Assembly: GCA_964468475.1 (NCBI GenBank)
Contig: CAYXUL010000004.1
Location: 1,811-63,490, forward strand
Direction: 5' to 3'
Source: an uncultured Ignavibacteria bacterium
GTDB taxonomy: Bacteria; Zixibacteria; MSB-5A5; CAIYYT01
DNA: 61,680 nucleotides
A model generated the notes under the pieces. That model saw only the letters and a list, made by a program, of their open reading frames with translations. It was not told where the DNA came from and searched no databases. The position numbers were made by a program, and so were the translations under genes. Shown here one piece after another: positions 24,327 through 44,712 of the stretch; position 1 is the stretch's first letter, and each line of letters starts with the position of its first letter.

Positions 24327-24390
24327 AACCTAAGGCTGGCACTTTATCGCCGCTTGACAGGCTGCATTTCGTTCCCGATTCTAAAAGCTT

Positions 24391-25143
24391 ATGTCCAACA
24401 ATAAGGCAGATCGGTACGGAGGAGCGCGCTTCCCGGAAACTCGACATTCCGCGCTGCGTGCGATTAAGAGTGGAGCCGGCAAACAAAAGCGGCTCGCGCT
24501 GGCAGTGATTACTTCAGCCTATTGGCCGGCAGTGTACAAATACCTGCGGTTGCGATGGCATCGCGATCCGGAGTCAGCCGCTGACCTGACACAATCGTTC
24601 TTCTTAAGTGCCCTTGAGAAGGATTACTTCGCTGACTATGACCCCGAGAAAGCGCGATTCCGCACCTTCATTCGACTCTGTGTTGATCGTTATGTGGCCA
24701 AGTTCGACCGCGCTGCGTCAAGGCTGAAGCGCGGTGGTGATGCAGAACATCTCTCGCTGGACTTTGCCGGGATTGAAGCTGAAATGAGTCGAGGTGCCGC
24801 CAACCCTGAATCTCCGGAAGCGTTTTTCGAAGCCGAGTGGATGCGCACACTGCTGGAGTCCTCGATCGAGCAACTCAAGGCGGAGGCCACAGCAAAGGGA
24901 AAGGGAATACCTCTGCAGGTTTTCGAGCAGTACGATCTCGAGCCGGCAGGAGGCGACGAACGTCCAACGTACCGGGATTTGGCGGAACGACACAGCGTCT
25001 CGGTGGAGACAATTACTAATTATCTCGCCGCAATGCGCCGCGACTTCCGACGCATAATCCTGGAACGCCTGCGGGAGATGACGGCAAATGAAGAGGAGTT
25101 TCGTGTGGAGGCGAGAGTCGTCCTGGGGGCAGATCCTGAATGA
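24391..25143 (+). CDS. sigma-70 family (ECF-like) sigma factor
   Basis: Region 2-like DLTQSFFLSALEKDYF...FRTFIRLCVDRYVAKFDR...KRGG. Region 4-like YRDLAERHSVSVETITNYLAAMRRDF. The linker between them is unusually long. Confidence 0.7.
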   Translation: MSNNKADRYGGARFPETRHSALRAIKSGAGKQKRLALAVITSAYWPAVYKYLRLRWHRDPESAADLTQSFFLSALEKDYFADYDPEKARFRTFIRLCVDRYVAKFDRAASRLKRGGDAEHLSLDFAGIEAEMSRGAANPESPEAFFEAEWMRTLLESSIEQLKAEATAKGKGIPLQVFEQYDLEPAGGDERPTYRDLAERHSVSVETITNYLAAMRRDFRRIILERLREMTANEEEFRVEARVVLGADPE

Positions 25144-26216
25144 GTTGGCTTTCAGACGATAGCATGAAGCATCTGCGTTCGGTAGTGGATTTACCCGATC
25201 TTTCCAAAACTCATTACAAGTTAATCGAGAGAATCGCGTCGGGTGGCATGGCAACAGTCTACAAAGCTGAAGACACCCGCCTCAAACGCCCGGTTGCGAT
25301 CAAGGTGCTGAGCAGTACCAACTTCACCGATGAATTCATCGCGCGAATGACGCAGGAAGCTCACCTGATCGCCGAACTCGAACACCCCGGAATTGTCCCG
25401 ATTCACGACCTTGGCACGCTTCCTGATGGACGGGTCTACTACGTGATGAAGCATGTAGAAGGCACCACTCTTGAAGAACTCATTCACCGCGAACCAGAAA
25501 TATCTGTGCGACTGCGAATTTTGCAGAAGGTCATTGAGGCAGTGAGCTTCGCTCATTCGAAGCATATCATCCATCGCGATTTGAAACCCGCAAATATCAT
25601 GATCGGTGCCTTCGGCGAAGTGCTGGTGATGGATTGGGGAATCGCAGCGCAGCTGAATACCGCAGAGAGGCCCCGTCAAACAGCCATTGGGAAGGCAGTC
25701 GATTTCATCATGGAGCATGTCGAGCAGGTACAGCAGCCGGATATTGAAACCGCTCACGGCACCGTGCTGGGAACACCGGCTTTCATGTCGCCGGAGCAGG
25801 CCAGGGGGGAAACCGATGTGATCGATAATCGGTCAGATATCTACTCATTGGGCGCGGTGCTCTATTTTCTCCTCACTGACCAGGCACCGTTTCAGGGTAC
25901 AGATGCAAAAGTAATTGCCGAGCGAGTGCTCATGGGTGACTTTATTCCGCCGCGACAATTGGAACGATCGCTGTCCAAACAGCTTGAGGCAATTTGTTTG
26001 AAAGCAATGTCATTGCAGGCTGCTGATCGCTATCAGCAAGTTTCCGAGCTTGGCAAAGACCTAACAGATTGTCTCGACGGCAAGCCGGTGGCTGCCTATC
26101 GTGAGAATTTCTTCGAGCGCTCCGGCCGCTGGGTCGCCAACAACCAGTTCATTGTCCTTCTACTGGTAGCTTATGTAGTCGTGAGATTTCTCATACTAGT
26201 CCTGATGGGACACTAA
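25140..26216 (+). CDS. Ser/Thr protein kinase, C-terminally membrane-anchored
   Basis: GGMATVYKA, VAIK, HRDLKPANIMI, DWGIA and SPEQ. C-terminal TM is FIVLLLVAYVVVRFLILVLM. The start overlaps the stop of the sigma gene (ATGA). Confidence 0.9.
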   Translation: MSWLSDDSMKHLRSVVDLPDLSKTHYKLIERIASGGMATVYKAEDTRLKRPVAIKVLSSTNFTDEFIARMTQEAHLIAELEHPGIVPIHDLGTLPDGRVYYVMKHVEGTTLEELIHREPEISVRLRILQKVIEAVSFAHSKHIIHRDLKPANIMIGAFGEVLVMDWGIAAQLNTAERPRQTAIGKAVDFIMEHVEQVQQPDIETAHGTVLGTPAFMSPEQARGETDVIDNRSDIYSLGAVLYFLLTDQAPFQGTDAKVIAERVLMGDFIPPRQLERSLSKQLEAICLKAMSLQAADRYQQVSELGKDLTDCLDGKPVAAYRENFFERSGRWVANNQFIVLLLVAYVVVRFLILVLMGH

Positions 26217-27815: not shown

Positions 27816-28058
27816 AATGAAGTATATCGGCTCCGAATGGGAGCAGACTTATACCAGTAAAGCAATTCCCGGCGTGACGTGTGACGTCAGTGCGAGCTAA
27901 ACAGCGAGGCAATACTGCCGAAACAATACTATGGAAGGTAGAGTTCGGGTTCAGCTATTGCACAGAGGAGTTCATGGACTGCACACCATGTAATGAATCG
28001 AATCACCTCCAAAGATTTGCGCTACCGCAGGACGATAACGCAAACAGGAGGTGTTAAA

Positions 28059-28619
28059 ATGTTAAAATCACTACTCAAACCACACCATCTGCTCACTATT
28101 GCTGTTGCCCTGTTCTGCTTCGCGATGATCTTCACCATGGATGTCAAGGCTGACGACAGCATTACTATCCGCCGCGATTTCCAGGGTGGAAAGCAGTTCA
28201 CCGTCGAGCAGCCAAATTCAATTCTGGCAAAATGGAGCATGGCATTAGATGGTGTTGCCACCGAGTACATTTTGACCTACAAAGGCTTGAGAGGCGCCGA
28301 TTCGATAGACGTCGAGTCGAAAGTAATCGAGCGCACCGTAGCCGGAAAGGTCCTGCGGACAATCAGTACCGATGACAATGTTCTGGCGGTAAACCAGTTC
28401 GGCGACATGATCTATAAGGTTGAATCGCTCACCTTTGCCTTCCGTCAGAATAAAGGCATTCTGACTTATGAGATCCTGTCCGACTGGAGTCGCAGTTACT
28501 CGAACCTGGCTTCCAATGCGCACACGTGCAACCGGGGCCACGAGTACGTCAACAGCGAGGGTGACGGCTGTCCGATCTGCAACGGCGCGGCGCTGGCGGC
28601 CCAGAATCAGGAGAAGTAG
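28059..28619 (+). CDS. hypothetical secreted protein with a C-terminal CxxxH...CxxC knuckle
   Basis: AGGAGG lies 9-10 nt upstream of ATG 28059. Signal peptide MLKSLLKPHHLLTIAVALFCFAMIFTMDVKA. C-terminus HTCNRGHEYVNSEGDGCPICNG. A strong terminator follows. Confidence 0.5.
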   Translation: MLKSLLKPHHLLTIAVALFCFAMIFTMDVKADDSITIRRDFQGGKQFTVEQPNSILAKWSMALDGVATEYILTYKGLRGADSIDVESKVIERTVAGKVLRTISTDDNVLAVNQFGDMIYKVESLTFAFRQNKGILTYEILSDWSRSYSNLASNAHTCNRGHEYVNSEGDGCPICNGAALAAQNQEK

Positions 28620-28711
28620 GAGAGTACTAACCACCGCTACGAAGAATTGACAAATCTCCACATAGGCTGCATACAGAAGTATACCAGTCAAGAAATCAGC
28701 ATTGACCTCAA

Positions 28712-28756
28712 CGCTCCCGTCGACTAAATTCATCGACGGGAGCGATCTTTATTTAC
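28712..28756 (+). terminator. Rho-independent terminator
   Basis: A perfect 12-bp stem CGCTCCCGTCGA / TCGACGGGAGCG with a 9-nt loop, followed by ATCTTTATTT. It is downstream of the 28059..28619 gene and insulates it from the PAAR gene. Confidence 0.7.
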
Positions 28757-28909
28757 GTATAAACTGCAAATCCGATCTGGATAGAAGCGCGGTGCGATTT
28801 ATCCGAACCATCTAAGCACTTATCCGACAAATAGATCGAAATGGTTAAGCGAACGCTAGGGCGCCGTGTATTCCGCCCTAAAGCTAATCAACATAGGTAA
28901 CAAGTAGTT

Positions 28910-30016
28910 ATGGGTAAGCCGGCAGCAAGAGTAGGGGACATGACCAGCCACGGTGGCGTTATCGCCGTAGGATGTCCTACGGTGCTTATTGGGGGAATGC
29001 CAGCCGCCAGGGTCGGCGATATGCACACCTGCCCAATGGTTTCTCCCGGCCCGGTACCACACGTCGGCGGCCCCGTTTCGCTGGGATCGACCGGAGTTCT
29101 TATCGCCAATATGCCCGCCGCGAGAATGGGGGACATGTGTGTCTGCACAGGACCGCCCGACTCAATAGCTGCGGGGTGCCCAACTGTGTTGATCGGCGAA
29201 ACCGGCGCCGGAGGAGGCGCTGGTGGCGGCAGCGGCAGTGCAAAGTCAGTGGCCGCCGGGGAGGCCTCGTCCGACGATTCCACCGCAGCTTCAGAATCCG
29301 GCGGCGGAGATAATGACAGCGATAGTGATGAGGGGCACTTCCTTCATACCGATTTTGTCGATAAGGCCGGATTTCCGATTACCGGCGTCAATTTCAAGCT
29401 GAAGCTCCCCGATGGCTCTGAGTCCTCCGGTCCGATGACCGGCACAGTTAAACAGGACGTCGAAAAAACTGGCAACTACGATATCGAACTTCACGGCGTA
29501 ATCAACGCGCAGTGGTCAAAAGAACGCGCTAAAGTGGGCGATAGCGTGACGATGTCGGCTGAGGCAGTGGGCATAGATGACGGAACGGAAGCTACTCTCG
29601 AACTCAGCGTGTATGACCCGAATTACGCCACGCGTACGATAAAATCGTTCAAAGTCTCGATTAGCGGCGGCAAAGTCCAGCATGATTGGAAAGTAGAGTT
29701 AGATCAGGCTTACTTGCAGATTCAGGATGAGAAATCGGAGTCAGCTAACTATTCATCACCTCTCTTCTTCTTCAAGGTGAAGGCTGGAGAATCCGAAACA
29801 CGTTCCGGTTTTCTTACCATCCTCGACGACTTCGAATTCAATCTAAAGGATAAAGACGGCAATCCGCTGGGGGACAAGAAGTACCGTCTCTACGCTTGCA
29901 CCGGCGAAATCAGGGAGGGCACCCTTGACGGCAACGGACACGCCAAGGAAACCGATGTCCCCGCCGGGCGCGTGCAGGTGTTCGTCGACATCAAAGATGA
30001 AAAATTCAACAACTGA
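28910..30016 (+). CDS. PAAR-domain protein with Gly/Ser/Asp linker and a ~225-aa C-terminal extension of unknown function
   Basis: There are three PAAR repeats, KPAARVGD, MPAARVGD and MPAARMGD, each followed by a Cys/His and CPTVLIG. The linker GETGAGGGAGGGSGS...DNDSDSDEG comes next, then a beta-rich region. Confidence 0.9.
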   Translation: MGKPAARVGDMTSHGGVIAVGCPTVLIGGMPAARVGDMHTCPMVSPGPVPHVGGPVSLGSTGVLIANMPAARMGDMCVCTGPPDSIAAGCPTVLIGETGAGGGAGGGSGSAKSVAAGEASSDDSTAASESGGGDNDSDSDEGHFLHTDFVDKAGFPITGVNFKLKLPDGSESSGPMTGTVKQDVEKTGNYDIELHGVINAQWSKERAKVGDSVTMSAEAVGIDDGTEATLELSVYDPNYATRTIKSFKVSISGGKVQHDWKVELDQAYLQIQDEKSESANYSSPLFFFKVKAGESETRSGFLTILDDFEFNLKDKDGNPLGDKKYRLYACTGEIREGTLDGNGHAKETDVPAGRVQVFVDIKDEKFNN

Positions 30017-30034
30017 TGAAAGGCAAGCGCGCAA

Positions 30035-33000
30035 GTGACTAACGGTGGCACCTCAGGAAATGGTTCGCAGGATATTCAAGCGACATTCAGCAGCCTGCTG
30101 AATCGTGTCGGCGCCACTACGGGCTGCCTTGCCAATATTTGGCACCGATTGATCAATATCGGCTTCATTGAGATGGAGGATGTACTCTTTCATCTCAACA
30201 GTTGCGTGATGATGCCTGCCCGGCCGGAAGGCAAGTCATCTACCCAGGGAGACGAAGACGACGATACTGACCCCGGCGATACCGAGCGTGGCGAAGCCCA
30301 GGCAGCGGTAAGTGGACTCAGTGCGATTGCGCTGGCCTTCAAGCAATTCGAATTCGATGCCGGCACGACTCTGCTGATCGCGGGCCACACCGATACTTCC
30401 GGCGGCGCGAAGATGAACTTCGAGCTTTCAGAGTTGCGAGCGCTCAATGTGCTGTTGCTCATGGAGGGCAATCGTCGCGACTGGGCATTGGGTGCGGCAG
30501 AACGACATCGCATCGAAGATTACCAGCAGATAATGAAATGGATCAAGCACAACACCCGCTGGGGCTGGGATTGTGATCCTGATAAAGTTGATAATATCTG
30601 GGGCGATAAGACCAGCGGTGCGACGCAAAGATTTATCGATGCCTACAATGACTGGGTTGATAGCGGCGATGCGCCCGATGTCGCCGCCAAGATCGCGCCC
30701 GATATGCACAGCCGCATCAGAAACGACGGTCAGCATAAGTGGCCGATGGAAATGTGGCAGGCTGTGTTTGATGTCTATAATGACGAGCTGGCTGCTATCC
30801 TGAGAGTGGATCGAGACGGACTCAATGGCCAATATCGCACCAAGCTGCACTGGGCCAACGACGAGAAGAAATACGTTTCGTGCGGTGAGTCATTTCCCAT
30901 CGACGATGCCGAGCGCGACAATTATCGATCGCAGCAAAATCGTCGCGTGGAGTTGCTGTTCTTTGACGAGGGCGACGCTCCCCCCGTAATCAATTGCCCG
31001 GGACACCGCGACACGGTTCACACTGCCGAAGAGTGCCCGATCTGGCATCATCTTCACTATATCCCGGTCTATATCGATCCGAACGACCTGAACGCAGTCG
31101 GTTACCACTTGAAATTCGTCTACTTTGATCGAGTATATCAGGCGCTTAAACCGGTACCGGAAGGGCTGCAGATAAAAGTATTTGAGAATGGCACTGATGA
31201 AATCAACGCGCGTCTCAGTTACTCGAATGGTGTGTATCTGGTAAAGGTTCAGCAAGATGATTCGCGTACCGATCTACAGTTCACCTTTGAAACCGCCAAC
31301 AAGTGGATCTACTCGGCTGACTCGTCGACTGATCCGGTCATAGTCGAAAAGACTCCTGCAGAAATCGCGGCAATGCCGTTCATCGAGCGCATCAAGTACT
31401 ATGATCTGCCCACAGGCTGGTCGTCCCGCAATTACTGGACTCGTTACGACGGCAACATGAACACCGGCGGCATCTTCCGCGAAGTGATGGAGAACACCAA
31501 ACAGTACAAACCTTTTGGTGGTAATGTCACCAGTTCCAACGCCCCGATGATCTTTTCTCTTGATGACATCGTGCTGTGCGCCAATAATCGTTCGCAGGTG
31601 ATTCGCGATCAGAATTCAGCCGGGGCTTCCTTTCCGGCCGCAAATCCGCTGAACAATAACTCTCGCTACACGCTCTTCCATCTCGACTATTCCACCAACG
31701 AGAGTTACGGCAGCGAGAACAAGAACCTGCGCAAGCTGAAGATCCACAACCCCGATCCGAATCTGCCGCAAACCACAAACACGCAATTTACCCGTAACCA
31801 TATCACGGATGTGCCCGGCAATGCGCGGTTGGTCTATTTCTGTAACGGCTTTTACGATGTCTTCGACAAGCGTACCACCACCGGCGACACCGGGTTCAAT
31901 TTTGCCTCCGGTCATGTCGCCGGAGCCAGAATGGCGCTGCTAAATGACTCCGATATTCACGTCACCGAGCACTTGATTGGCTCTAACGCCGCCAACGTCA
32001 CCGCCGGGTTCTGCTTCAACAATGTTGGCGGTAACTACGATCTGCACTACCTGCACAACTGCGGTGATCTTGATGGCAAGCCATTGGAATACCTCCTCAT
32101 TCACTGGTCGGGGCGCATACAGGCGGACACCACCGCAGGCACGACCGTGACCGCCAACGATGTGACCAACCATCGCAACCCCGGTTTTGCCAACGCCAAC
32201 GAACGGATGAATCGAAAGAACTATCTCTTTGTCAAGGATTCCGGCGGCAATGACATTATTATTCGACCCCACTGGTTCATGGAATACAAGAATAATACCA
32301 ATGGCGGTCAGCATAAGGCGTTGATCACGGTGGTAGATAGCGGCAGCTGGATGTTACCCGCAACGGCGCACTTCCGCAAAGCGGCCTATCAGACCGAGCC
32401 TAACCGTTTTGGGGCTCACGATCCGGATAATACTCGACAAGATACCAACGGCCAGACCAATGAGCCGCTGGCCAACTGCCACGAGATGGGCCACGCACTG
32501 GGTAACGGTGACGAGTATCTTTACAGCGCCAGCGACTCGGCCGGTGCTAGTTGGGGCGGCGTCCCGGCCTATGCCCAGCCCAACACTCCAGAGGGTGGGC
32601 CATACTCCGGAGATACTCTCGCCCTCATGAACAGGAACCGCGCCTGGCGTATGCGGCACTTGTGGAAGTTTGTTTGCTGGCTGCATGATCGCTCCGCCGC
32701 GGGCAGCACACTCCATCCCTTTTTCCATGGAACACGATTTAAAATTACCCTACCCACCACCAGCGGCTCGCCGCACAACTACAGGCTACCCGAAGCCAGC
32801 CGCAACATCTTCCTGCCAACTCGCAAGGGAACCAATATTGACACCGGCGACGATTCGAAGGTTGACCTGATGCTCTTCCGCCTCGGAGATGAGGAGTATG
32901 CTCGTCTGATCAAGTCAGGCATCACCTTCAACGGCATCCTCGCCGTGCGCACCAAATTTGCTGTCAAGTTCATCAATGGTTCAGGGGCGGCAAACCAGTG

Positions 33001-33400
33001 GACGACGGCGCGCAAGCGTTCCTGGGTACAGGCTCTGAATAACGACTACAAGAACATGTGTAACGGCAACGGCGGTAAATTCCGCCTTGAAGCCAGCGGG
33101 GCCAACGATTTCAAGAATGTCTTCGCCTGGTTTGCACCACATTTCAAGGAATACACGGGAGGCGCGCCGGGTGATTCGCATATAAATGTCGAAGTCACTT
33201 ACGATACCGGTGGCGACTTCTCTTCCTCCGGCAACGAGCTGGATGTCAAACGTGACGTAAATAATGCGCGCATCATCCGCTATTGCTGGGGTCTCGACAG
33301 CGGCACCGGAAACCTCACCAAGGACAACTTCACAGCAATCGAAGGTTGGATGGCAAGGGCCGACGTTGCCAACGGCACCTTTGATATGAAGAATCTATGA
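30035..33400 (+). CDS. large leaderless protein with a split OmpA-C-like peptidoglycan-binding domain and a C-terminal HExxHxxGxxD metallopeptidase motif
   Basis: 1121 aa with a GTG start 18 nt after the PAAR stop. LLIAGHTDTSGGAKMNFELSELRA (30371 onward) and NRRVELLFF (30938 onward). HEMGHALGNGD at 32480-32512. No signal peptide is visible. Confidence 0.8.
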   Translation: MTNGGTSGNGSQDIQATFSSLLNRVGATTGCLANIWHRLINIGFIEMEDVLFHLNSCVMMPARPEGKSSTQGDEDDDTDPGDTERGEAQAAVSGLSAIALAFKQFEFDAGTTLLIAGHTDTSGGAKMNFELSELRALNVLLLMEGNRRDWALGAAERHRIEDYQQIMKWIKHNTRWGWDCDPDKVDNIWGDKTSGATQRFIDAYNDWVDSGDAPDVAAKIAPDMHSRIRNDGQHKWPMEMWQAVFDVYNDELAAILRVDRDGLNGQYRTKLHWANDEKKYVSCGESFPIDDAERDNYRSQQNRRVELLFFDEGDAPPVINCPGHRDTVHTAEECPIWHHLHYIPVYIDPNDLNAVGYHLKFVYFDRVYQALKPVPEGLQIKVFENGTDEINARLSYSNGVYLVKVQQDDSRTDLQFTFETANKWIYSADSSTDPVIVEKTPAEIAAMPFIERIKYYDLPTGWSSRNYWTRYDGNMNTGGIFREVMENTKQYKPFGGNVTSSNAPMIFSLDDIVLCANNRSQVIRDQNSAGASFPAANPLNNNSRYTLFHLDYSTNESYGSENKNLRKLKIHNPDPNLPQTTNTQFTRNHITDVPGNARLVYFCNGFYDVFDKRTTTGDTGFNFASGHVAGARMALLNDSDIHVTEHLIGSNAANVTAGFCFNNVGGNYDLHYLHNCGDLDGKPLEYLLIHWSGRIQADTTAGTTVTANDVTNHRNPGFANANERMNRKNYLFVKDSGGNDIIIRPHWFMEYKNNTNGGQHKALITVVDSGSWMLPATAHFRKAAYQTEPNRFGAHDPDNTRQDTNGQTNEPLANCHEMGHALGNGDEYLYSASDSAGASWGGVPAYAQPNTPEGGPYSGDTLALMNRNRAWRMRHLWKFVCWLHDRSAAGSTLHPFFHGTRFKITLPTTSGSPHNYRLPEASRNIFLPTRKGTNIDTGDDSKVDLMLFRLGDEEYARLIKSGITFNGILAVRTKFAVKFINGSGAANQWTTARKRSWVQALNNDYKNMCNGNGGKFRLEASGANDFKNVFAWFAPHFKEYTGGAPGDSHINVEVTYDTGGDFSSSGNELDVKRDVNNARIIRYCWGLDSGTGNLTKDNFTAIEGWMARADVANGTFDMKNL

Positions 33401-33416
33401 TAGAAGGAACTCTACG

Positions 33417-34520
33417 ATGACCGAACTATACAGTCGCTTCTTTGCCAACCCTTTGCGCAACGGGATGATTGATATAGTCTCAGACGCAGTCGGCAAACTC
33501 GCCTGGTCTCGCAAAATCGGCGATATTGAGTCTGATTCGGCGAATGTGCGACTGTTGCTGTCGGGCGAAGACTATGTCATAGCCGATAACCTCTCAGAGT
33601 TGGTGTGTGTGAAGCGAAACGGGGACATTGCCTGGCGGCGACCGTGTTGGTACTCGAGTCAAACCGCATTGCAGGATGGGGTGCTTTATTTCACCGATCC
33701 GGAGCGTAACGACTTCATGCAGGCAGTTGATGCGAACAACTCGGTCACGCGCTCAGGGGAGAGGTTCTGGGGTATGGTCGACAACGCCTACCTGACACTG
33801 TTCGAACCGGGTGCCGATGAGACATTCTGCCAGGTTCAATTGGTGCACGACCCGCACAACGAACCACCGCTGATGATGTGCTATCGCGAGGATCGCTCCA
33901 GCCCGGGAATGCGCTGGTCAGTGGATCTCGAATGCGAGGGCAGCCCGATAATTCCGTTGCTCAACCGCGCTCAGAAGCGACTGGTTACTTCGACGCGAAC
34001 GGAGATCGTTGTACTTGACACTGAATCTGTTATTCCGGAGCCCGCTCCGGCAGCGCGATTTCCGTTTCCACTTCACGAAGCGACCCATTGGGTGAGTTCA
34101 GCCGATGATGGTCGCCTTTTCTGGTGTGGTACCGGTGAGCAGGGCGCAACGCTGGGAATTACTGATTTTGCCGGCGAAATGCAGTGGCGATATGAGAAGG
34201 GACTTGCCGGACGCGCGATTGCACCTCCGGTAGTCGGCAAGGAGTTGATCTGGCTTGTGACCGATCAAGCGGCCTATGCTTTTAAGGACGGAAAGCTGGC
34301 CTGGAAATATGATGCGGGTAAGACGACATTGACCTTCGCTACGGCCGTGGTCAACGACACCCTGTTGCTGTGCGGCATTGACCGGCTCATCCGGCTGGAC
34401 TCCGATGGGCTAACGGAATTTGACCTCAAGTTCGAGGAGCCGCTGTCGGCGCCACCCGTTGTTGATGCTTCCGGACAGATATATATCGCCAGCCGGGGAA
34501 TAATATATGCCTTTGTGTAA
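33417..34520 (+). CDS. hypothetical protein, PQQ/BamB-like beta-propeller repeats suspected
   Basis: 367 aa with no signal peptide. It has recurrent G.(L/I)Y(F/I)...G.L(A)W(K/R) strands (GVLYFTD, GKLAWKYDAG, GQIYIASRGIIYAF). Confidence 0.55.
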   Translation: MTELYSRFFANPLRNGMIDIVSDAVGKLAWSRKIGDIESDSANVRLLLSGEDYVIADNLSELVCVKRNGDIAWRRPCWYSSQTALQDGVLYFTDPERNDFMQAVDANNSVTRSGERFWGMVDNAYLTLFEPGADETFCQVQLVHDPHNEPPLMMCYREDRSSPGMRWSVDLECEGSPIIPLLNRAQKRLVTSTRTEIVVLDTESVIPEPAPAARFPFPLHEATHWVSSADDGRLFWCGTGEQGATLGITDFAGEMQWRYEKGLAGRAIAPPVVGKELIWLVTDQAAYAFKDGKLAWKYDAGKTTLTFATAVVNDTLLLCGIDRLIRLDSDGLTEFDLKFEEPLSAPPVVDASGQIYIASRGIIYAFV

Positions 34521-35364
34521 GCGACCGGGTTGCGTTATCATGATGCTGGCAGGAATGACAATGATGCTTACTGCTGCCTGCAGGCAAGAGGTGGTACCCA
34601 AAGTGGAAGCGTTTAGATTTAGTTTTGGACTAAAATATAGCGTGGTCAGGGATGGGGACTACTGCGCAATTGAGCAGCGCGATATCTGGACCGACTCGCA
34701 GATCGCGCCGCCGGCCGACTTCGACGAAGCGCCGTATATCATGCTGATCAGCAAAAAGGAATGCGCGGCAATCCTGAGTCAGGTAGATGAGATTGACTGG
34801 ACGAAGTATACGGACTTGAGTGATGCTGATTTTGAGACAACGCCACCCGGAATGCAGCATCGCGAGCGACTCTATGTCAAGATTGGCGACGATGTCAAAG
34901 TTGACTGGATCAAGGACTTTCAAAAGCTTCAACCAAGCCTGCGCGAACCACTTGAAGCGACTCAGCAACTCATCGGCAACATAGCGGTCGAGCGTGAAGG
35001 TAAGCTAATACCGCCCGATAGCCTGCAGCTGTCGTTGAGTGTGACGGAGCATGGAACGACGAACAGGTGGAGCGTGACTCGCGAAGGCGGTAAAGATGAA
35101 CTTTCCGCCAATGGCAAGACAGCGGAATTGTCACCCGACAGCTTCAATGATCTCTGGAGTCAAATTCTCGATTTGCGTTTATTCGGTGCTGAGTATGCTC
35201 CCCTCGATTCAACGCAAGAAAAAAATCGAATAGATGAGCTCGCGGTGAATATCAATGGCAAGGAACTGGTCAATTTCAGCTTCAACACACCCTATGAAAA
35301 CCAATCACGGGTCGAGGAACTACACAACCTGTTATCGTTGGCCGCAAAGAATGTGAAGAAATAG
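34507..35364 (+). CDS. hypothetical lipoprotein
   Basis: 285 aa. Lipobox MMLTAAC. It overlaps the previous gene by 14 nt. I recognise no family. Confidence 0.6.
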   Translation: MPLCKRPGCVIMMLAGMTMMLTAACRQEVVPKVEAFRFSFGLKYSVVRDGDYCAIEQRDIWTDSQIAPPADFDEAPYIMLISKKECAAILSQVDEIDWTKYTDLSDADFETTPPGMQHRERLYVKIGDDVKVDWIKDFQKLQPSLREPLEATQQLIGNIAVEREGKLIPPDSLQLSLSVTEHGTTNRWSVTREGGKDELSANGKTAELSPDSFNDLWSQILDLRLFGAEYAPLDSTQEKNRIDELAVNINGKELVNFSFNTPYENQSRVEELHNLLSLAAKNVKK

Positions 35365-35389
35365 CACTAATCAGGATGGAATAGAAGAT

Positions 35390-35815
35390 ATGACGAAAAC
35401 CAACAACAGCTTCAAACTGCAGCTACCGGATGGCTGGGAGGATCGCTCGATCTACACTTTCATGGGCCCGGAAGCTTTCGGCATGCAGCATATGTTGAAT
35501 CTTGTCATCGACGATCAAATCGGTGATCACACACTCGAATCCTTCGCGACGCAACGAGTACAGATGATGAAGGACGCGATGCCGGACGCGACAACCCTCA
35601 AGGAGGGCGAAAGATCACTCGCCAGCGGCATGCCTGTTTACGAGTGGGTGTACAAGACGCATCCCACTGACGACAAAGCTCGCTTCCACAAGACATACTT
35701 CATGATCGTCGGTGGCCGCGGATTCACTTTCAACGCCGTCTTCAGCAAGTCATCGATGAAGACCATCGGCGTGGAAGTGGAAGAGATGGTAAATTCATTT
35801 TTGCCGATGAAGTGA
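35390..35815 (+). CDS. DUF1795/DcrB-superfamily protein (Eag-type effector chaperone-like)
   Basis: 141 aa. The N-terminus FKLQLPDGWEDRSIYTF is the characteristic opening strand pattern of DUF1795 proteins. Size and position at the end of a PAAR island fit this call. Confidence 0.65.
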   Translation: MTKTNNSFKLQLPDGWEDRSIYTFMGPEAFGMQHMLNLVIDDQIGDHTLESFATQRVQMMKDAMPDATTLKEGERSLASGMPVYEWVYKTHPTDDKARFHKTYFMIVGGRGFTFNAVFSKSSMKTIGVEVEEMVNSFLPMK

Positions 35816-35927: not shown

Positions 35928-37157
35928 TCATTTCTTATGACACTGTATGCACAGGTCCATGTCGGGATCAAAGGCTAGATAGTACTCGTGTCCGGAGCCA
36001 TGCATCTTGTGGCAACTGAGGCAGTTCATCGGCTTACCGTTTCTCGGGTCGATTACCTTCTCGCCCATCGGATGTGAATTCTTGTGCGCATCCTCGTGGC
36101 AGGAGTTGCACAGATCGGTCACGTTATCATTAGCTAGGTATCTGGCGTTGTTTGCGCCGTGCGGCGTATGGCAGATTGTGCAATCCTGTCCCGGGTGAGT
36201 GATATATTCCGATTTCTCCTTTGATGGCACATCAGTGAAGTGGCACTTCATGCAGAGGTTCTTCTGGTCAGAACTCAACAGAGTCGAAGCGTTTGACGCG
36301 TGCGGATTGTGACAATTCAGGCACGAGCCGTCCGCCTTCAAATGAAATGAGTACTTGAGATGGCTGCTCTCTTTGATGTCATCGTGACAGCCGTAACAGA
36401 TTTTGTCGACCTCACCGCTAATTGCGAACGAGCCACCGGCGGTAGCGCTCTTCGAATGACAGCTGCCACATTCCCCCGCTTCAAACGGCGGGTGCTGGTT
36501 GGCCATTAGCAATGCGCGATTCTTTGATGAGTGCGGGTCGTGACAGGCAGTGCAGTCAGCTGAGGAGAGATCATAGCCTTTATGAGTCTTCTTAAAGGAT
36601 GCGTCGTTGTCGTGGCAGTCGAAGCAAACCGTCGGCACCGCTTTCTTGAGCAGTCCGGTATACTTTGAGCCGTGCGGGACATGACAGTCTGAACATTCCT
36701 TCGCCTCTACCGGTGGATGCACATTCGCGCGAGCCAGCCACTCTTTCACATTCTCGTGGCAAGATGCGCAGAGTGTTTCCGGTGATTGCTTGAGCACGTG
36801 GTTGAAATCAGAAGCGTGCGGATCGTGACACGAAAGGCACTCACCGTTTGCTACCGGCTGATGTACATTGGCAAGTTCAGTTTGATCCTTTATCTCATCG
36901 TGGCACTGAAAACAAGTTGCCTGAACGCTACTGTTGAGTAATGACGCGTGTCGCGATGCGTGCGGATTGTGACAGTTTGAGCATTCACCAGAGGCGAAAG
37001 CACCGTGCACGTGCTTCTTATTTTGCAGTTCCTGAATATCATCATGGCAGTTATAGCAGACAGCCGGCTGATCAACAGTGACGACTTGCGCGCTACCGAT
37101 ATTAGCGGCGGTCGCGATGAGCCAGAGCGATGCAATAATTAAAATAAAACGTGTCAT
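35928..37157 (-). CDS. multiheme c-type cytochrome, 16 CxxCH motifs (doubled-CxxCH repeat type)
   Basis: 409 aa with a signal peptide. I counted 16 CxxCH. The repeating unit is CxxCHD...VH.P...G.C..CH.PH.S....LL. Confidence 0.95.
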   Translation of the reverse strand: MTRFILIIASLWLIATAANIGSAQVVTVDQPAVCYNCHDDIQELQNKKHVHGAFASGECSNCHNPHASRHASLLNSSVQATCFQCHDEIKDQTELANVHQPVANGECLSCHDPHASDFNHVLKQSPETLCASCHENVKEWLARANVHPPVEAKECSDCHVPHGSKYTGLLKKAVPTVCFDCHDNDASFKKTHKGYDLSSADCTACHDPHSSKNRALLMANQHPPFEAGECGSCHSKSATAGGSFAISGEVDKICYGCHDDIKESSHLKYSFHLKADGSCLNCHNPHASNASTLLSSDQKNLCMKCHFTDVPSKEKSEYITHPGQDCTICHTPHGANNARYLANDNVTDLCNSCHEDAHKNSHPMGEKVIDPRNGKPMNCLSCHKMHGSGHEYYLAFDPDMDLCIQCHKK

Positions 37158-39139
37158 CAGCGATCACCTTCTTTCTTTGCCGGTTCGGTGTGGCAGGCGT
37201 CGCACATCCTCTCAGAGAAAGGTGCGTGGCTGTTGCTGAGCATTAGACCACGATCCTCGGAAGCATGCGGATCGTGGCACTTGCGGCAGTCAATTTGTGA
37301 GCCGGTCAATCCCAGGTGTTTGTCTTTGAAGGCGGAATCATCGCCATCGTGACAGTCGAGGCAGGTTGCCGGAACGTCCTGTATCAGCAGTGAAGCATAT
37401 TCGCTCGAATGGGGCTGGTGACAGGTGCTGCACTCTTCCTCGGCGGGTGGATGCGCCTTATAGTTTGCCATCATCGTGTCAATGTCAACGTGGCAATTAA
37501 GGCAGAGACGTGGCTGTTTATCGAGCAGGAGATTGCCCAGCTTTCCCGAATGAGGCGTATGACATTCGGTGCAATTGCCTTCCTCCACCGGAGCGTGCAT
37601 GCTTGTTGTTGCGGCCGGTTCGACGATGTCATCATGACACGTGCCGCACAGTTCTTTGGGGGTAGCTGTAAGCAGATTTGGCACTTCGCCGGCGTGGACG
37701 ACGTGACAGATATCGCAATTTCTTTCCTTGAAGGGGGGATGCTGAATGATTGCGAGGCTATCGGCGTAGAGATCGCTGTGACATTTTTCGCAGAGATCAT
37801 TCTTTGCCGCGCGTAGCAGTGGAGCCGTCTGTGAAGCGTGCGGATTGTGGCACTCTACACATTGTCCCTGCTTAATCGGCATATGCACGCTCTTCTCGGC
37901 GAGCCAATCCACGCCCTCGTCGTGGCAATCCCCGCAAAGTTCCGACTGGGGCTTCTTGATAAGATTCGCATACTGCGAACCATGTGGTTTATGGCAATCC
38001 GTGCACTCACCGTCAACGAATGGCGGGTGCGTGCTGGGGAAATCCATTGCTTCTGCTTTGTCGTCATGACAGGTGAGGCACAGCTCTTTGCTGTCAGCTA
38101 CCAATAGCATCTTTTTGGCCATGCCATGAGCGTTGTGGCAGGTGCTGCAATCCTCCTCGGCGGGTGCGTGGCGTGATGCCATTACCAGCTCGTCCTGAAC
38201 ATCACTGTGACACTCAAGACAAAGTTGCTTCTCCGGTTCGATCAACAGCGCGTTTTCTTTCGATCCGTGCGGGTTGTGGCAGCTGGTGCAACTGCCCGCC
38301 TCGACTGGTGCGTGGCTACCCTCGGGAGCAACATCAGCCTTGTCGTGGCAGGTCAGACAGAGCGCATCGGCATCATCAGTCAGTTCAAAAGGCGTGGCAG
38401 AGTCGGGCGCATTGTGGCAACTTTCACACTCGCCACCTTCAACGGGCGCGTGTATTGATGCCCGGAACAGGAATTTTGAATCTGATGAGTGCGGCGAATG
38501 GCACTTGCCACAATCCTGATCTTCCAGGGCGTATCCACCGTGCGCCTGCTTGTAGTCGGCTGGTTGATGACAATCGCGGCATAGATCATTAGCAGGCTTC
38601 TTCAGTAAGCCGGCGTATGCACTGCCGTGGACTTCGTGACAGGCAAAGCAGTTGTCCTTCATTGGCTCATGAACAAACTTACCCTCGAATTCCTTGCGAT
38701 CGTGGCAGTCGAAGCATATCTCCGACGCTGTCTTCTTCAGAAGCGCTTCATTATCTGAAGCGTGGGGGTCGTGGCACTTCTCGCAGCGGCCCTGTTTCGC
38801 AGGCGCATGAATGACACTGGCGTCCATGCCCAGTTTGGCCTTATCGTGGCACTCGTAGCAGAGCTGGGCGCCGCTCTCCTTGAGCCGCAGCATTCCTACC
38901 AGTCCATGCGGTTTGTGGCAGGCCACACAGTCTTTGTCGCCGAACGGTTTGTGTTTGTTGGAGCCCGGGAAGTCCTTTACGTCATGACACTCGGTGCAAT
39001 TGCCCTTTGATGAGAAGCGCTTGCCACGTTTGATCTGACCGCTTGCATCCGAAGTAAGGAATATCAGCGTAGCGGCGCAGATGAGCAGCACCAATAGAGG
39101 GAGTGAGTTGCCAACCCATCTGAGCTTACCAGACCACAT
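37157..39139 (-). CDS. multiheme c-type cytochrome, 26 CxxCH motifs (13 tandem diheme units)
   Basis: I counted 26 CxxCH. The start is set at ATG 39139 (MWSGKLRWVGNSLPLLVLLICAATLIF signal/anchor). The stop overlaps the next gene's ATG (TGATG). Confidence 0.95.
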   Translation of the reverse strand: MWSGKLRWVGNSLPLLVLLICAATLIFLTSDASGQIKRGKRFSSKGNCTECHDVKDFPGSNKHKPFGDKDCVACHKPHGLVGMLRLKESGAQLCYECHDKAKLGMDASVIHAPAKQGRCEKCHDPHASDNEALLKKTASEICFDCHDRKEFEGKFVHEPMKDNCFACHEVHGSAYAGLLKKPANDLCRDCHQPADYKQAHGGYALEDQDCGKCHSPHSSDSKFLFRASIHAPVEGGECESCHNAPDSATPFELTDDADALCLTCHDKADVAPEGSHAPVEAGSCTSCHNPHGSKENALLIEPEKQLCLECHSDVQDELVMASRHAPAEEDCSTCHNAHGMAKKMLLVADSKELCLTCHDDKAEAMDFPSTHPPFVDGECTDCHKPHGSQYANLIKKPQSELCGDCHDEGVDWLAEKSVHMPIKQGQCVECHNPHASQTAPLLRAAKNDLCEKCHSDLYADSLAIIQHPPFKERNCDICHVVHAGEVPNLLTATPKELCGTCHDDIVEPAATTSMHAPVEEGNCTECHTPHSGKLGNLLLDKQPRLCLNCHVDIDTMMANYKAHPPAEEECSTCHQPHSSEYASLLIQDVPATCLDCHDGDDSAFKDKHLGLTGSQIDCRKCHDPHASEDRGLMLSNSHAPFSERMCDACHTEPAKKEGDR

Positions 39140-39176
39140 ATCAATATCCTTTCTCACCACTCCCCGAGTCCTTTCC

Positions 39177-40811
39177 CTACCGGCTCTCACCCAGGTAGCG
39201 GTCAATGGCCTTGTCGAAGTAAGTGATCTCAGAGTGATCCTTCAGCACTGCGAGTGCCTTGTCGAGAAGGCTGTTGAATTGGCGTTGAAACATGATCTGC
39301 CGAATTGCGAGTTCGACTTCATCAAGTGACTTGAGTCGGCCCTGCTTCTTGTCAAGCAACCTGAAGATTATCCAGCCATCGGAGGTTGGAAAAGGACGAC
39401 TGGATGCCCCAATTTGCAGGGAGTCGAGATTGTCACGGATTTCCTCCGGAAACGCATTGAGCGTTGTCCAGTCGGTCTTTTCCATCACGCGCGGATCTCC
39501 GGTGACGAAGCGATCAGTCACGTAGTCGAAGTCACTGCCATCCTTAAGCAGTTGATAAGCGCTGTCTGCGCCGGCTTTGTCAGCGATGATGATACTGCGA
39601 AGTTGTAGCTTGCCCGGCTCACGGAAATCATCCTGGTGCTCGTTGTAGTATTTGGTGAATTCATCGCGGTTGAATGTTATCTGCGAGACGACGGTTTCCT
39701 TGAGGTAGATCTCCACCAGGGCGCTATCGCGAGTCTTGTCAAGCGCCGCGACAACTTTCGGGTCATTCTCAAGACCTGCGGCAACCCCTGACTGCAGTAG
39801 CGCCTGCTGTTGCAGCCACTGATCGATTGCTGCAGTCACAAGCGAATCCTTTGGGGCATTGGCGGCGTTCATCGCCAGCCGGGCTGTGGCCAGTCGCAAC
39901 TCGCTGTCAGTGAGCTTGCCGGTCTCACCGATGGTAGCGACGACATCATTGGTACCGATAAGGAATGTTGAATCCAGGACCGCCTCAGCATCAGAAGCAA
40001 TTGCCTTCGCGCGTTCGTTGTTGCGAGTGACTCCCAGTTGCTGCTCCAGGGAATCGACAAACGCCAGCCAATCGGCCTTTTGCTTATTGATTTTAAGCAC
40101 GCTGCGAATGTAGTTTTGCAGAGACGGCAGCTCTGTCTCGTCGGCGGGCGTTACCTGATCTACACGCATGAGCACGTAGGCATCATGGTAGGGAAACGGC
40201 CCGATCAACTGACCTTCTTTGGGGTCAGGCAGGTGAGTCCTCAGTTCATTCTCAATCTCTGCATAGTACATTAAACTGTGCGCGCCGCCCTGATAGCGGT
40301 GCACGTCGACTGAATTGGTCTTTGCGAGACTGTCCATCGGCGCTCCGGCGGCGATCATCTGCCTCAGGGAATCCGCTTTGCTACGGCTCAAAGTCGCAAT
40401 AGTTCTGATCTGAACTTTGAAGTACTTCTTGTCAAAGTAGTCCTTGATCTCGTCGTCGCTGACCTTTTTGTTAAACTTGTAATAGTTTTTCGCAAAACAC
40501 CGCTCGACATTCTTATCGCGTTCCCGCTCCATGAACTTCAGGAACGAGTCTTCGTCGGCCATACCGATAGCATTGGCTTCCTGTATGATGAGCCTGTCAT
40601 TTACGAGCTTATCCACGAGTTTGCGATAGTCAAATTTCATTTTCGAGTTGTTGCTCATAGAATCGTGAATCGTGGAAAAGATATCGTCGACGTCCGTTGT
40701 CGTGATCGAATCGCCGTTGACTACAGCCAGCACCTCCTGCGCCAGCGCTCTGCTACCGTCGACTATGAGCAAACCGAGGAGCAGTGTGAGTAAAATCCTG
40801 AAGCCTTGCAT
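39177..40811 (-). CDS. SurA-like periplasmic chaperone / parvulin-type peptidyl-prolyl isomerase
   Basis: The start is set at ATG 40811 (MQGFRILLTLLLGLLIVDGSRALA). The SurA_N-like opening is VLAVVNGDSITTTDVD. There are two rotamase-like segments (QIRTIATLSRSKADSL..., LQLRSIIIADKAGADSAYQLLKDGSDF). Confidence 0.75.
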   Translation of the reverse strand: MQGFRILLTLLLGLLIVDGSRALAQEVLAVVNGDSITTTDVDDIFSTIHDSMSNNSKMKFDYRKLVDKLVNDRLIIQEANAIGMADEDSFLKFMERERDKNVERCFAKNYYKFNKKVSDDEIKDYFDKKYFKVQIRTIATLSRSKADSLRQMIAAGAPMDSLAKTNSVDVHRYQGGAHSLMYYAEIENELRTHLPDPKEGQLIGPFPYHDAYVLMRVDQVTPADETELPSLQNYIRSVLKINKQKADWLAFVDSLEQQLGVTRNNERAKAIASDAEAVLDSTFLIGTNDVVATIGETGKLTDSELRLATARLAMNAANAPKDSLVTAAIDQWLQQQALLQSGVAAGLENDPKVVAALDKTRDSALVEIYLKETVVSQITFNRDEFTKYYNEHQDDFREPGKLQLRSIIIADKAGADSAYQLLKDGSDFDYVTDRFVTGDPRVMEKTDWTTLNAFPEEIRDNLDSLQIGASSRPFPTSDGWIIFRLLDKKQGRLKSLDEVELAIRQIMFQRQFNSLLDKALAVLKDHSEITYFDKAIDRYLGESR

Positions 40812-40815
40812 TAAT

Positions 40816-41946
40816 CTACCTCTGCACCGTTTCGTGTTGAATAGTCTTGTTGCTGGAGACTCCCGTGCGCCGTTCCCGCACGAGCCGCTTCCACATCGTC
40901 TCCACCAGTGATTGCGTTGTCCTGCCGATTGAATATTCTCTCCCCGAGCCGAACAGGGCGTTGACCGTGGCGCCGTTTCGCTGGTCGTTGACAGCAGAGA
41001 GTACAACTCCGCTCTGGGGGTCGGTGAGACGCAGACTCAAGCCGACTACCGGCCCCGCCTGGGAAACTCGGCCCCGTAACGGCAAGAACTCAAAAACTGT
41101 GCCGCTCACCAAAGCAGTGACATTCAGGCTGTCCGACAGTTCTTTCATGCCAACCTCGGTTGCCGATCCTATATAGAGCTGCCGGCTGCGGGTCAAAATG
41201 CGAGTCACATCACCGGGCTCAGCGACCGGGTATCCCAGCTGCCATACCTCGGCAAGTAGCAGATCTGATACCACGTCGCCCGCGGTCAGATAAAGTGTCG
41301 AATGATCGCAGGGGATTACCGCGAGCTTGCCGCTCTGCAGCAGCTTTCTGGCCTGCTTGCTGACTTTCGGCACTTTGAAGTTTGAGCCGGCGAAATGAGA
41401 ATCAAAATCCTTCATCAGCTCCCGAATTACTCTCGATGTTACTTTGCTCATTGAAGACGTCTCACCAATCCCCAGAAGCCCGCCGTAATCTTCTCCCGCT
41501 GCCGAGACGCACTTGGCCCAAACGACTTCCAGGGAGCGGCAGTCGTAGACCCTCAGGCAGAGTGACAATTCGGGTAGCTCTCCCGGTTGGTAGATTTCGA
41601 TTGCGCCGGTGACAACGAATCTGACACCGAGCCCTTGATTCAGTTCAGACGCTGCCACGGAGTTAACCACTCCCACGAGTCGCAGCCTATTCGAGCGCAT
41701 GAAGTCTCTGAGTGAATCACCGGTAATTAGATTACAGCGTTGCTCCAACTCGGACTTCACCGCGGATTCAACCGAATCGCGGGCTTCATTGAATTCGCTG
41801 TAGTTGGCCAACGGCACCAGCGCAAACCTTGTGGCAGCACTCTCAATTGTTGCTTTGGCCCCGGGGGCAAAAACAAGAATAAATAGAGCACATATCATCA
41901 AGATTGCGCTGTAGTCTCTTAGCATTGTTCTTGTGTCGTCAGCCAT
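40816..41946 (-). CDS. periplasmic/OM-associated protein with two tandem CsgG/LpoB/TolB-N-like domains
   Basis: 376 aa with an N-terminal hydrophobic anchor. Two repeats follow the pattern (F/L)A(L/V)(V/I)P...(spacing)...(V/A)L(V/I).G(T/A)(V/I), matching the neighbouring lipoprotein. Confidence 0.55.
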   Translation of the reverse strand: MADDTRTMLRDYSAILMICALFILVFAPGAKATIESAATRFALVPLANYSEFNEARDSVESAVKSELEQRCNLITGDSLRDFMRSNRLRLVGVVNSVAASELNQGLGVRFVVTGAIEIYQPGELPELSLCLRVYDCRSLEVVWAKCVSAAGEDYGGLLGIGETSSMSKVTSRVIRELMKDFDSHFAGSNFKVPKVSKQARKLLQSGKLAVIPCDHSTLYLTAGDVVSDLLLAEVWQLGYPVAEPGDVTRILTRSRQLYIGSATEVGMKELSDSLNVTALVSGTVFEFLPLRGRVSQAGPVVGLSLRLTDPQSGVVLSAVNDQRNGATVNALFGSGREYSIGRTTQSLVETMWKRLVRERRTGVSSNKTIQHETVQR

Positions 41947-41961
41947 CTTTTGACTTCAGTC

Positions 41962-42585
41962 TCAGTCGATTAGTGTATCGATAGTTTTGCGCACGCAACG
42001 TCGCGCAACTTCGCTATAGGAGCGCTGTTCCGTTCCGAAGAGCGATGACAAAAACGTGCGACTGCCCTCAGTGTCGGTAGCCGACCACACGATTTGTCCT
42101 TCCTCAGTCTCCATCATGCGGACATCGAGAGTTACAACTGTGGCCGGGCCGCCACTCGAGCGATTATTGGTCGACTCATTGACAGTGCCGATAATAAGTG
42201 CCTGCACGCCCAGCGTCTTACCCAGTTCCTTAATCTGATCCACCGTGAGCAGGTCTTTGCGCGGCAGCGTATATTTTCCCAGCGCCTTGATTACTTCTCC
42301 CGGCTCCACAATGTCGAATGCTTCCGCTGCCAGCAACTCTGTCATAAACAAGTGCGTCAGTCGTGGTCCTGCGCCTTGATCATTGGAAAGATTTTCAAAC
42401 GGAACTATCGCGACCCGTTCTACATAGGCGAAATTGTAATCCCGGTTCAGGAACACTGTTGGTTTGACTGTCGAGCAGCCGGAGAGCAAAAGTGCAAAAA
42501 GAACAGCAAGCGAGATGACTGCCGGGAGAGTCGCGTGAACAGTCTTCGCGGTAAGTCGGAGTTGATTCTTAGTAGTGTATTTCAT
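41962..42585 (-). CDS. lipoprotein, DUF799/LpoB/CsgG-like fold suspected
   Basis: Lipobox LLSGC. VAIVPFENLSNDQGAG ... LGVQALIIGTVNE ... VTLDVRMMETEEGQIVWSA is the pattern shared by CsgG, LpoB, PelC-like and TolB-N-like ring lipoproteins. Confidence 0.65.
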   Translation of the reverse strand: MKYTTKNQLRLTAKTVHATLPAVISLAVLFALLLSGCSTVKPTVFLNRDYNFAYVERVAIVPFENLSNDQGAGPRLTHLFMTELLAAEAFDIVEPGEVIKALGKYTLPRKDLLTVDQIKELGKTLGVQALIIGTVNESTNNRSSGGPATVVTLDVRMMETEEGQIVWSATDTEGSRTFLSSLFGTEQRSYSEVARRCVRKTIDTLID

Positions 42586-44696: not shown

Positions 44697-44712
44697 AAGT
44701 CTCCACTTAACA

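Follow-up and report, generated by a model that had tools for sequence, protein, structure and literature searches.

The nearest characterised analogue of the protein described here is VgrG2b, which with PA0261 represents the Tpe/Tpi family in the H2 type VI secretion system (T6SS) of Pseudomonas aeruginosa; its C-terminal metallopeptidase exerts its toxicity in the periplasm, and the periplasmic/lipoprotein immunity protein PA0261 neutralises it (PMC6899460). A second point of reference is provided by the Eag chaperones of the prePAAR effectors (EagT6-Tse6 and SciW-Rhs), which bind N-terminal transmembrane segments of effectors (PMC7773334). Here we compare with these systems a locus in a 61,680-nt stretch of DNA (61.7 kb; hereafter the window) from an uncultured Ignavibacteria bacterium, placed in the Zixibacteria by GTDB (assembly GCA_964468475.1, contig CAYXUL010000004.1, positions 1,811 to 63,490 of the forward strand). 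Five plus-strand open reading frames (ORFs), separated by gaps of 18, 16, -14 and 25 nt, encode a PAAR spike-tip protein, a large protein that we call BIG, a beta-propeller protein, a lipoprotein and a DUF1795/DcrB protein. We put at roughly 0.7 the probability that this region is an auxiliary T6SS effector, immunity and chaperone-loading module, detached from its main cluster, in which case the T6SS itself would be encoded elsewhere in the genome.

BIG resembles VgrG2b as a predicted HExxH zinc peptidase that would be delivered on a spike and act in the target periplasm, with an adjoining transthyretin (TTR)/beta-sandwich adaptor element and, just downstream, a putative periplasmic/lipoprotein immunity gene. 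In VgrG2b, however, the peptidase is fused to VgrG, whereas BIG is a separate protein that would be carried as cargo by the PAAR protein, and BIG adds an OmpA-like peptidoglycan-binding domain, a snapalysin-like HExxHxxGxxD motif and a beta-propeller as putative immunity protein. The structure of the VgrG2b effector domain (6h56) was absent from a BIG profile search of the PDB (E <= 1) and from the 50 fold matches listed. With the Eag systems the locus shares a cytoplasmic protein of DUF1795 fold encoded beside a PAAR-linked effector; the known clients differ in carrying N-terminal transmembrane helices between prePAAR and PAAR (PMC7773334), which are absent from both PAAR and BIG here.

Two further comparisons concern the spike and the machine. 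The PAAR-TTR class, as it is summarised where Shneider et al. (2013) is cited in PMC6899460, likewise has a PAAR cone followed by beta-sandwich/TTR-like domains, whereas the window protein has three tandem domains after a disordered 40-residue linker, and a paralogue consisting of these domains alone precedes a second cargo slot. In a limited comparison with the literature we found no description of this free-standing paralogue. As for the machine, one group of related clusters (type B below) shares the PF17541/PF17642 sheath and tube, together with ClpV, VgrG and TssE/F/G/K, with the T6SSiii of Bacteroidota (PMC10781749). These clusters differ in lying outside the classical Bacteroidota, with TssN/O/P/Q/R not detected in the flanks seen, and the same module also sits on a second architecture, of Ignavibacteria type, whose Hcp (PF05638) and TssF/G belong to canonical families. 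Our literature searches turned up no account of the BIG family, nor any of T6SSiii-type clusters from these phyla.

T6SS linkage of the module in related genomes

At least 274 proteins are homologous to BIG, most of them full-length, at ~33-80% identity. An exhaustive search of representatives gave 343 clusters (50% identity) with E <= 1e-30, and when species-representative genomes were scanned, relatives turned up in 143 stretches. Zixibacteria, Ignavibacteria, Chitinivibrionales/Fibrobacterota, Krumholzibacteriota, GN15, Gemmatimonadota and Aminicenantes are among the named sources, and two divergent copies occur in some genomes. When the genes of 84 BIG loci were clustered, a PAAR gene lay immediately upstream of BIG in 52 of the 58 loci with enough upstream sequence, the propeller followed BIG in 61 loci, and a DcrB-like gene was present in 51. 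Of 34 loci flanked by 8 kb or more on each side, 19 had T6SS core genes within 10 kb, nine were of the window's own type (type C) and six were other orphans. A comparison of neighbourhoods had been proposed as a check in the initial annotation of the window; in many relatives, from Zixibacteria, Ignavibacteria, Fibrobacterota, Krumholzibacteriota and other groups, it places sets of PAAR, BIG, propeller and DcrB within T6SS clusters or next to them. Every machine linked to the module in these relatives is a T6SS with ClpV and TssBC, and never an extracellular contractile injection system (eCIS).

The loci fall into three types. Type A, Ignavibacteria-like, reads Hcp-TssE-TssF-TssG-ClpV-VgrG-PAAR-BIG-propeller, then a ~290-aa protein, a further gene x, DcrB, FHA/SLT, PP2C and kinase. 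Type B, found in Zixibacteria and their allies, reads PAAR-BIG-propeller-DcrB, then the ~290-aa protein, x and ClpV-TssB-TssC-TssD-VgrG-TssE-TssF-TssG-TssK, with sheath and tube of the T6SSiii-type families PF17541 (DUF5458 TssC) and PF17642 (TssD). Type C comprises the window and 13 syntenic genomes: an aldehyde dehydrogenase, a sigma-like gene, a kinase and a small secreted protein precede PAAR-BIG-propeller-(lipoprotein)-DcrB, and a cytochrome operon converges on the cassette. In two loci (L017 and L101) the window-type set, with leaderless propeller and lipoprotein, adjoins a complete type B core of ClpV-TssB-TssC-TssD-VgrG-TssE-F-G-K. One PAAR-BIG module is seen on two T6SS architectures: loci L008-L015 carry the canonical Hcp (PF05638), TssF and TssG families with FHA/SLT, PP2C and kinase genes, whereas L001, L017 and L101 carry T6SSiii-type TssC and TssD.

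Because this survey was conditioned on BIG, a second, independent sample was collected through the sheath gene TssC. Nearly all TssC loci with enough upstream sequence show the same order: a PAAR protein with C-terminal domains, a cargo in what we call slot 1, a small partner, DcrB, a protein of ~300 aa that comprises nothing but the PAAR C-terminal domains, slot 2, and ClpV-TssB-TssC with the remaining core genes. Slot 2 holds a variable large protein, with LysM, Metallophos or BACON domains, and a small signal-peptide protein.

Some features of the clusters themselves were seen in passing. In L165 (6942-9514) and L169 (6948-9525) ClpV is split between two adjacent genes, for proteins of ~490 aa (N-domain plus D1) and ~366 aa (D2), unlike other type B clusters such as L166 and L168, where it is a single gene encoding ~840 aa. 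Type B clusters end (L101 18253-21424; also L166 and L168) with TssK, a ~308-aa protein without family match and a ~735-aa GTPase-like protein with a weak DO-GTPase2 match. No homologues of TssJLM or of TssN-R were seen in the type B flanks examined.

Evolution and predicted activity of BIG

The TssC sample also shows how slot 1 varies. BIG and the propeller fill it in ~19 of the 27 informative loci, while in L093/L094/L095/L156, L141, L142, L149, L165 and L169 unrelated proteins stand in their place; L123 retains the OmpA-like part of BIG (profile positions 33-304) followed by a different C-terminus. Among the type C genomes, two groups are about equally distant from the window in the flanking genes (aldehyde dehydrogenase 70 vs 74% identical, kinase 54 vs 53%, cytochrome 58 vs 58%), while BIG is 59% identical in the first group and 38-40% in the second, and the propeller is 43% identical in the first and undetectable in the second. 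Since the flanks are equidistant while these identities differ, BIG and the propeller were exchanged together, or diverged together, at a site that stayed the same in the chromosome. The argument for a cassette swap rests on this identity table, the neighbour-joining tree being crude.

BIG-related proteins also combine parts of the molecule with other modules. Many match only residues ~14-512 of BIG and end in a calcineurin-like phosphoesterase (Metallophos) domain (for example P0400 and P0428). Others match only residues ~411-1000: some start with a different OmpA plus PG_binding_1 module (P0398), and in P0440 and P0448 this part is preceded by CarboxypepD_reg/TTR-like repeats and CBM5/12 modules. 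Such domain shuffling is polymorphic-toxin behaviour. Replacement in the slot, cassette exchange and domain shuffling together support the view that BIG behaves as an effector and not as machine hardware; a role as a membrane-complex or other core component was considered and rejected on the evidence of alternative cargo, cassette exchange and shuffling.

In BIG an OmpA-like peptidoglycan-binding domain with a long helical insert occupies aa ~40-310 (30152-30964); there are also beta-sandwich domains, and a metzincin-like protease module lies at aa ~705-900. The Pfam OmpA model (PF00691) matches at E 1.1e-4 with 22.9 bits, under its gathering score of 27.2, and the BIG family profile matches PDB entries with OmpA-like domains in each of the two halves: the motifs GHTDtSG..NFxLSxxRA and CGESFP..NRRVE align to Pal/OmpA structures. 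Within the domain Asp120 is nearly invariant and Arg135 invariant; these are the Asp/Arg pair that binds diaminopimelate in PF00691. In the protease module H816, E817, H820, G823, D826 and Y828 are invariant among 108 homologues, and the HExxH region has a weak M6-type metalloprotease match in Pfam/NCBIfam. The motif HExxHxxGxxD with a downstream Met constitutes what we take to be a snapalysin-type metzincin signature; the profile match to snapalysin itself (1c7k/4hx3) is weak, at E 0.7. The initial annotation had recognised a peptidoglycan-binding-type domain and a zinc-protease motif in this protein, and both calls are borne out, by the OmpA-like alignment and by the invariance of HEMGHALGNGDEY.

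AlphaFold2 (AF2) models BIG with a mean predicted local distance difference test score (pLDDT) of 91.7 and a predicted TM-score (pTM) of 0.84. A fold search with the whole protein gave no match at E < 1e-3 and no whole-chain relative in the PDB, and the domain matches were limited to OmpA-like, immunoglobulin (Ig)-like and weak metzincin folds. The BIG family has no signal peptide or membrane segment (maximum KD19 1.0-1.5). BIG is most likely a leaderless cargo effector, predicted to combine a peptidoglycan anchor with a metzincin-like zinc protease, and any toxicity would putatively come from proteolysis in the periplasm.

Proposed loading and immunity, and competing explanations

The cone of the PAAR protein, at aa 1-97 (28910-29200; AF2 pLDDT > 90), is followed by a disordered Gly/Ser linker of ~40 residues (aa 100-138, 29207-29323) and by three beta-sandwich domains (aa 143-360, 29336-29989), the whole model having a pLDDT of 86. 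The PAAR domain is intact and without insert, as judged from the PDB alignment and the AF2 model, and conforms to the PF05488 cone; its closest match in the PDB is the eCIS tip protein SalCis10 (E 2.6e-24), followed by the T6SS PAAR protein 8gra (E 5.7e-13). An AARxxDxxxH motif stands at the N-terminus, a feature shared with the prePAAR effectors of the Eag systems. By Foldseek the beta-sandwich domains resemble tandem macroglobulin (MG)/Ig-like domains, the last matches the VgrG2b TTR region weakly in sequence, and some homologues carry CarboxypepD_reg (PF13620) or SpaA domains of prealbumin-like fold. Homologues of the C-terminal domains occur as free-standing ~290-aa proteins in T6SS loci (hhalign E 6.5e-40). 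The C-terminal domains are probably a cargo adaptor, through which BIG would be loaded onto PAAR.

The free-standing protein (L001 15170-16057; L002 14396-15259; many others) consists of the PAAR C-terminal beta-sandwich domains alone. It precedes the second, highly variable cargo slot, in which each cargo has a small secreted partner. This protein may represent a new family of T6SS adaptors.

The last gene of the cassette encodes a candidate Eag-like chaperone. Pfam DcrB matches its product at 28.6 bits against a cut-off of 27.2, and matches 33 of the 35 members of its family; matches of the family profile in the PDB are limited to the Eag chaperones EagT6 and SciW. The protein has no signal peptide and would be cytoplasmic, beside the PAAR and cargo genes.

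A lipoprotein-type signal is present in 54 of 70 distinct propeller family members, and the propeller co-varies with BIG at the type C site, so that it is a candidate cognate immunity partner of BIG. The window propeller (33417-34520) has no signal peptide, and its ORF is not extendable upstream. In all, 16 propellers are leaderless, namely those of all six loci with the extra lipoprotein and ten others. The 285-aa lipoprotein, whose signal peptide ends in a lipobox-like LTAAC, has no Pfam or family match and is confined to loci with a leaderless propeller (the window, L003, L004, L016, L017 and L101); it evolves fast, with 44% identity in one relative against 70-80% for the flanking genes. 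It is possibly a periplasmic immunity or accessory protein. Because the propeller lacks an export signal and a fast-evolving lipoprotein has been gained, the lipoprotein is the better candidate for periplasmic immunity in the window sub-lineage, and the propeller, being leaderless, may serve as an inhibitor in the cytoplasm. From sequence, this combination looks like a re-partitioning of the immunity function.

Assembled into a mechanism, PAAR would cap the VgrG trimer spike, and its flexible linker and three C-terminal beta-sandwich domains would hold leaderless BIG, with the Eag-like protein stabilising a component ahead of loading. Sheath contraction would then deliver BIG into the periplasm of a neighbouring cell, where the OmpA-like domain could dock it on the peptidoglycan and the metzincin-like protease cut an envelope target. 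The producer would be shielded by the gene that follows BIG, whose propeller product is a periplasmic lipoprotein in most relatives; in the window sub-lineage, where the propeller has lost its export signal, the added lipoprotein probably gives the periplasmic protection.

The initial annotation had suggested a distal effector/immunity module of a T6SS or eCIS encoded elsewhere or, as an alternative, an uncharacterised PAAR-dependent system. The T6SS module gains from the comparative linkage in relatives, the effector-like behaviour of BIG and the restriction of the DUF1795 profile to Eag structures; the new PAAR-dependent system gains no support. Several observations weigh against a T6SS module nonetheless. 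No contractile-machine genes were found by Pfam scans among 20 further large ORFs of the window, and 155 T6SS core proteins from related loci gave no tblastn match at E <= 1e-3 in the 61.7 kb; because of the latter result, the cassette is an orphan within the window, as had been claimed. No T6SS genes lie within 10 kb in the 13 syntenic type C relatives, and a T6SS was not shown in any genome of the lineage when the best 120 TssC matches (74-88% identical) were examined; the four matching loci inspected belong to genomes other than those of the window's lineage. Neither PAAR nor BIG has a transmembrane segment, though known Eag clients carry one. For an effector, BIG shows an unusual breadth of distribution and degree of conservation, filling the slot in ~70% of TssC-centred loci, and its fold matches to snake-venom metzincins/adamalysins are weak (TM-score 0.33-0.34, E 0.3-0.45). 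Finally, the window propeller has no signal peptide and so, in its present form, cannot confer immunity in the periplasm.

Some of these points would suit other explanations. BIG might be no toxin, and instead a conserved spike-borne enzyme that breaches or anchors to the wall, like the lysozyme domain of the phage T4 tail spike, with the propeller and DcrB as assembly partners. Its full-length conservation across several phyla (33-59% identity), its fixed position between VgrG/PAAR and the remaining cluster, its presence in the slot of most TssC-centred loci, its predicted binding to peptidoglycan and the absence of TssJLM/TssN-R membrane-complex genes from the flanks examined would all fit such a role. 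We nevertheless regard it as unlikely: about one third of otherwise identical T6SS clusters have unrelated proteins in the BIG slot, BIG and the propeller are swapped as a cassette between equally related genomes, BIG domains recombine with other enzymatic modules, two divergent copies occur within some genomes, and the partner of BIG is in most relatives a lipoprotein of the periplasm, as immunity proteins typically are. Another idea, that BIG has a housekeeping role in the envelope, as a peptidoglycan anchor of the OmpA family standing beside PAAR by chance, could appeal to the setting of the locus among housekeeping genes and to the label 'OmpA family protein' that some sources attach to its homologues. 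We give it next to no credence, and it is already contradicted, by the family's want of a signal peptide or membrane segment, by PAAR as direct upstream neighbour in the 52 of 58 loci, and by the confinement of the family to PAAR/T6SS contexts in the loci examined.

A different possibility is that the module no longer serves a T6SS in the window lineage, and belongs to another contractile machine such as an eCIS-type particle or is a T6SS-independent or relict cassette. We hold this to be improbable. No T6SS gene occurs in the window or in the regions flanking the cassette in the 13 syntenic genomes, the additional BIG copy that some type C genomes hold is likewise detached from T6SS genes, and the closest solved PAAR structure is the eCIS tip SalCis10 (PMC13266070). 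That similarity, however, is limited to the generic PAAR cone, and Pfam scans found no Afp/PVC-type sheath, tube or baseplate genes in the window. All cassette genes are intact with catalytic residues kept, the machines linked in relatives are T6SSs throughout, and the retention of the module at one site in at least 13 species-level genomes argues for function. Effector islands distant from the main cluster are moreover common for T6SSs. That the whole lineage (at least 13 species-level genomes) is without any T6SS, the cassette using a different contractile particle or none, we consider a long shot; if it were true, the loss of the propeller signal and the gain of the lipoprotein would speak of a re-wired delivery or immunity scheme.

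On the preferred reading, a detached T6SS effector module, the kind of system is ordinary, but the BIG family has yet to be characterised and is frequent among phyla of which little is known. It would constitute a large uncharacterised family of T6SS effectors in which a peptidoglycan anchor and a metzincin-like protease are combined, and the PAAR C-terminal domains with their free-standing paralogue suggest how cargo might be recruited. It would also point to T6SS weapons among Zixibacteria, Ignavibacteria, Fibrobacterota and allied uncultured phyla, groups in which antagonism between bacteria has hardly been studied, and offers an annotation rule for such "OmpA family/hypothetical" proteins.

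Cassette boundaries and chromosomal setting

Features of the cassette are collected in Table 1; gene calls are simple ORF calls and domain calls come from Pfam and NCBIfam. They bear out the initial description of the cassette: five tightly packed plus-strand genes, PAAR first and DUF1795/DcrB last, BIG and the propeller leaderless by signal-peptide analysis, a lipoprotein among them, a cytochrome operon converging from the right, and no contractile-machine genes in the window by Pfam scans and tblastn. The left boundary needs correction. The terminator proposed there is real, with a perfect 12-bp stem (CGCTCCCGTCGA/TCGACGGGAGCG), a 9-nt loop, a T-rich tail and a folding energy of -26.4 kcal/mol (z = -4.3), and was missed by a simple scan solely through the loop-length limit of that scan; the proposed start of the island, at 28059, by contrast, belongs to a separate upstream gene for a secreted protein (up189).

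Table 1. Coordinates of the PAAR-BIG cassette and adjoining features in the window
Feature	Position	Strand	Basis or remark
up189, small secreted protein	27993..28619	+	Probable start M23 at 28059; ORF call, signal peptide, family comparison
Intrinsic terminator	28712..28756	+	Ends up189 gene; PAAR operon begins downstream, at 28910
PAAR spike-tip protein, 368 aa	28910..30016	+	Pfam PAAR_motif E 8.5e-24, PDB matches, AF2 model
BIG, putative leaderless cargo effector, 1121 aa, GTG start	30035..33400	+	Homologue family, invariant residues, AF2 model
Predicted zinc-binding motif HEMGHALGNGDEY (HExxHxxGxxDxY), BIG aa 816-828	32480..32518	+	Invariant in 108 homologues
Met865 of BIG, candidate Met-turn	32627-32629	+	Nearly invariant in family alignment
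Beta-propeller protein, 367 aa, candidate BIG immunity partner	33417..34520	+	PQQ_2/BamB-like E 4.7e-7
Lineage-specific lipoprotein, 285 aa	34507..35364	+	Signal peptide aa 1-25, lipobox Cys25
DUF1795/DcrB-fold protein, Eag-like chaperone candidate, 141 aa	35390..35815	+	Pfam DcrB E 1.7e-6

Protein up189 has a signal peptide and a zinc-knuckle-like C-x2-GH...CPxC motif at its C-terminus, and gave no Pfam match. Its gene, which has its own terminator, is conserved as the immediate upstream neighbour of PAAR in 15 related loci, which cover three locus types. At L045 (1712-4979) and L079, at least five tandem paralogous secreted proteins of ~190 aa are encoded upstream of the PAAR cassette; these may be arrays of orphan immunity genes. 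A relationship between up189 and these tandem proteins was rejected (hhalign probability 0.7%).

Base composition is uniform along the window, and the neighbours of the cassette are chromosomal housekeeping genes (MetH, MTHFR, aldehyde dehydrogenase, two Ser/Thr kinases, a sigma-like factor, the convergent multihaem cytochrome operon and acetate kinase). The two kinases, one with TPR repeats, and the sigma-like gene lie 2.7-7 kb upstream (21753-26216) and are syntenic with the cassette in relatives. Kinase genes accompany the PAAR-BIG module in many loci, T6SS clusters included. A role of the kinase at 25140-26216 as a T6SS regulator is unsupported, since its identity to T6SS-cluster kinases is a generic 25-33%, equal to that with an unrelated kinase of the window.

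The convergent operon (35928-47080, minus strand) encodes multihaem cytochromes of 409 and 682 aa with many CxxCH motifs, a SurA-like peptidyl-prolyl isomerase, a beta-propeller protein and proteins without assigned function. It resembles an extracellular electron-transfer cluster and adjoins the cassette in 13 genomes. Further away, at 10308-13160, lies the gene of a 950-aa protein that combines right-handed beta-helix/NosD repeats with a Rha78A-like Ig domain and matches dockerin weakly; it is probably a secreted enzyme acting on polysaccharides, with no relation to the cassette.

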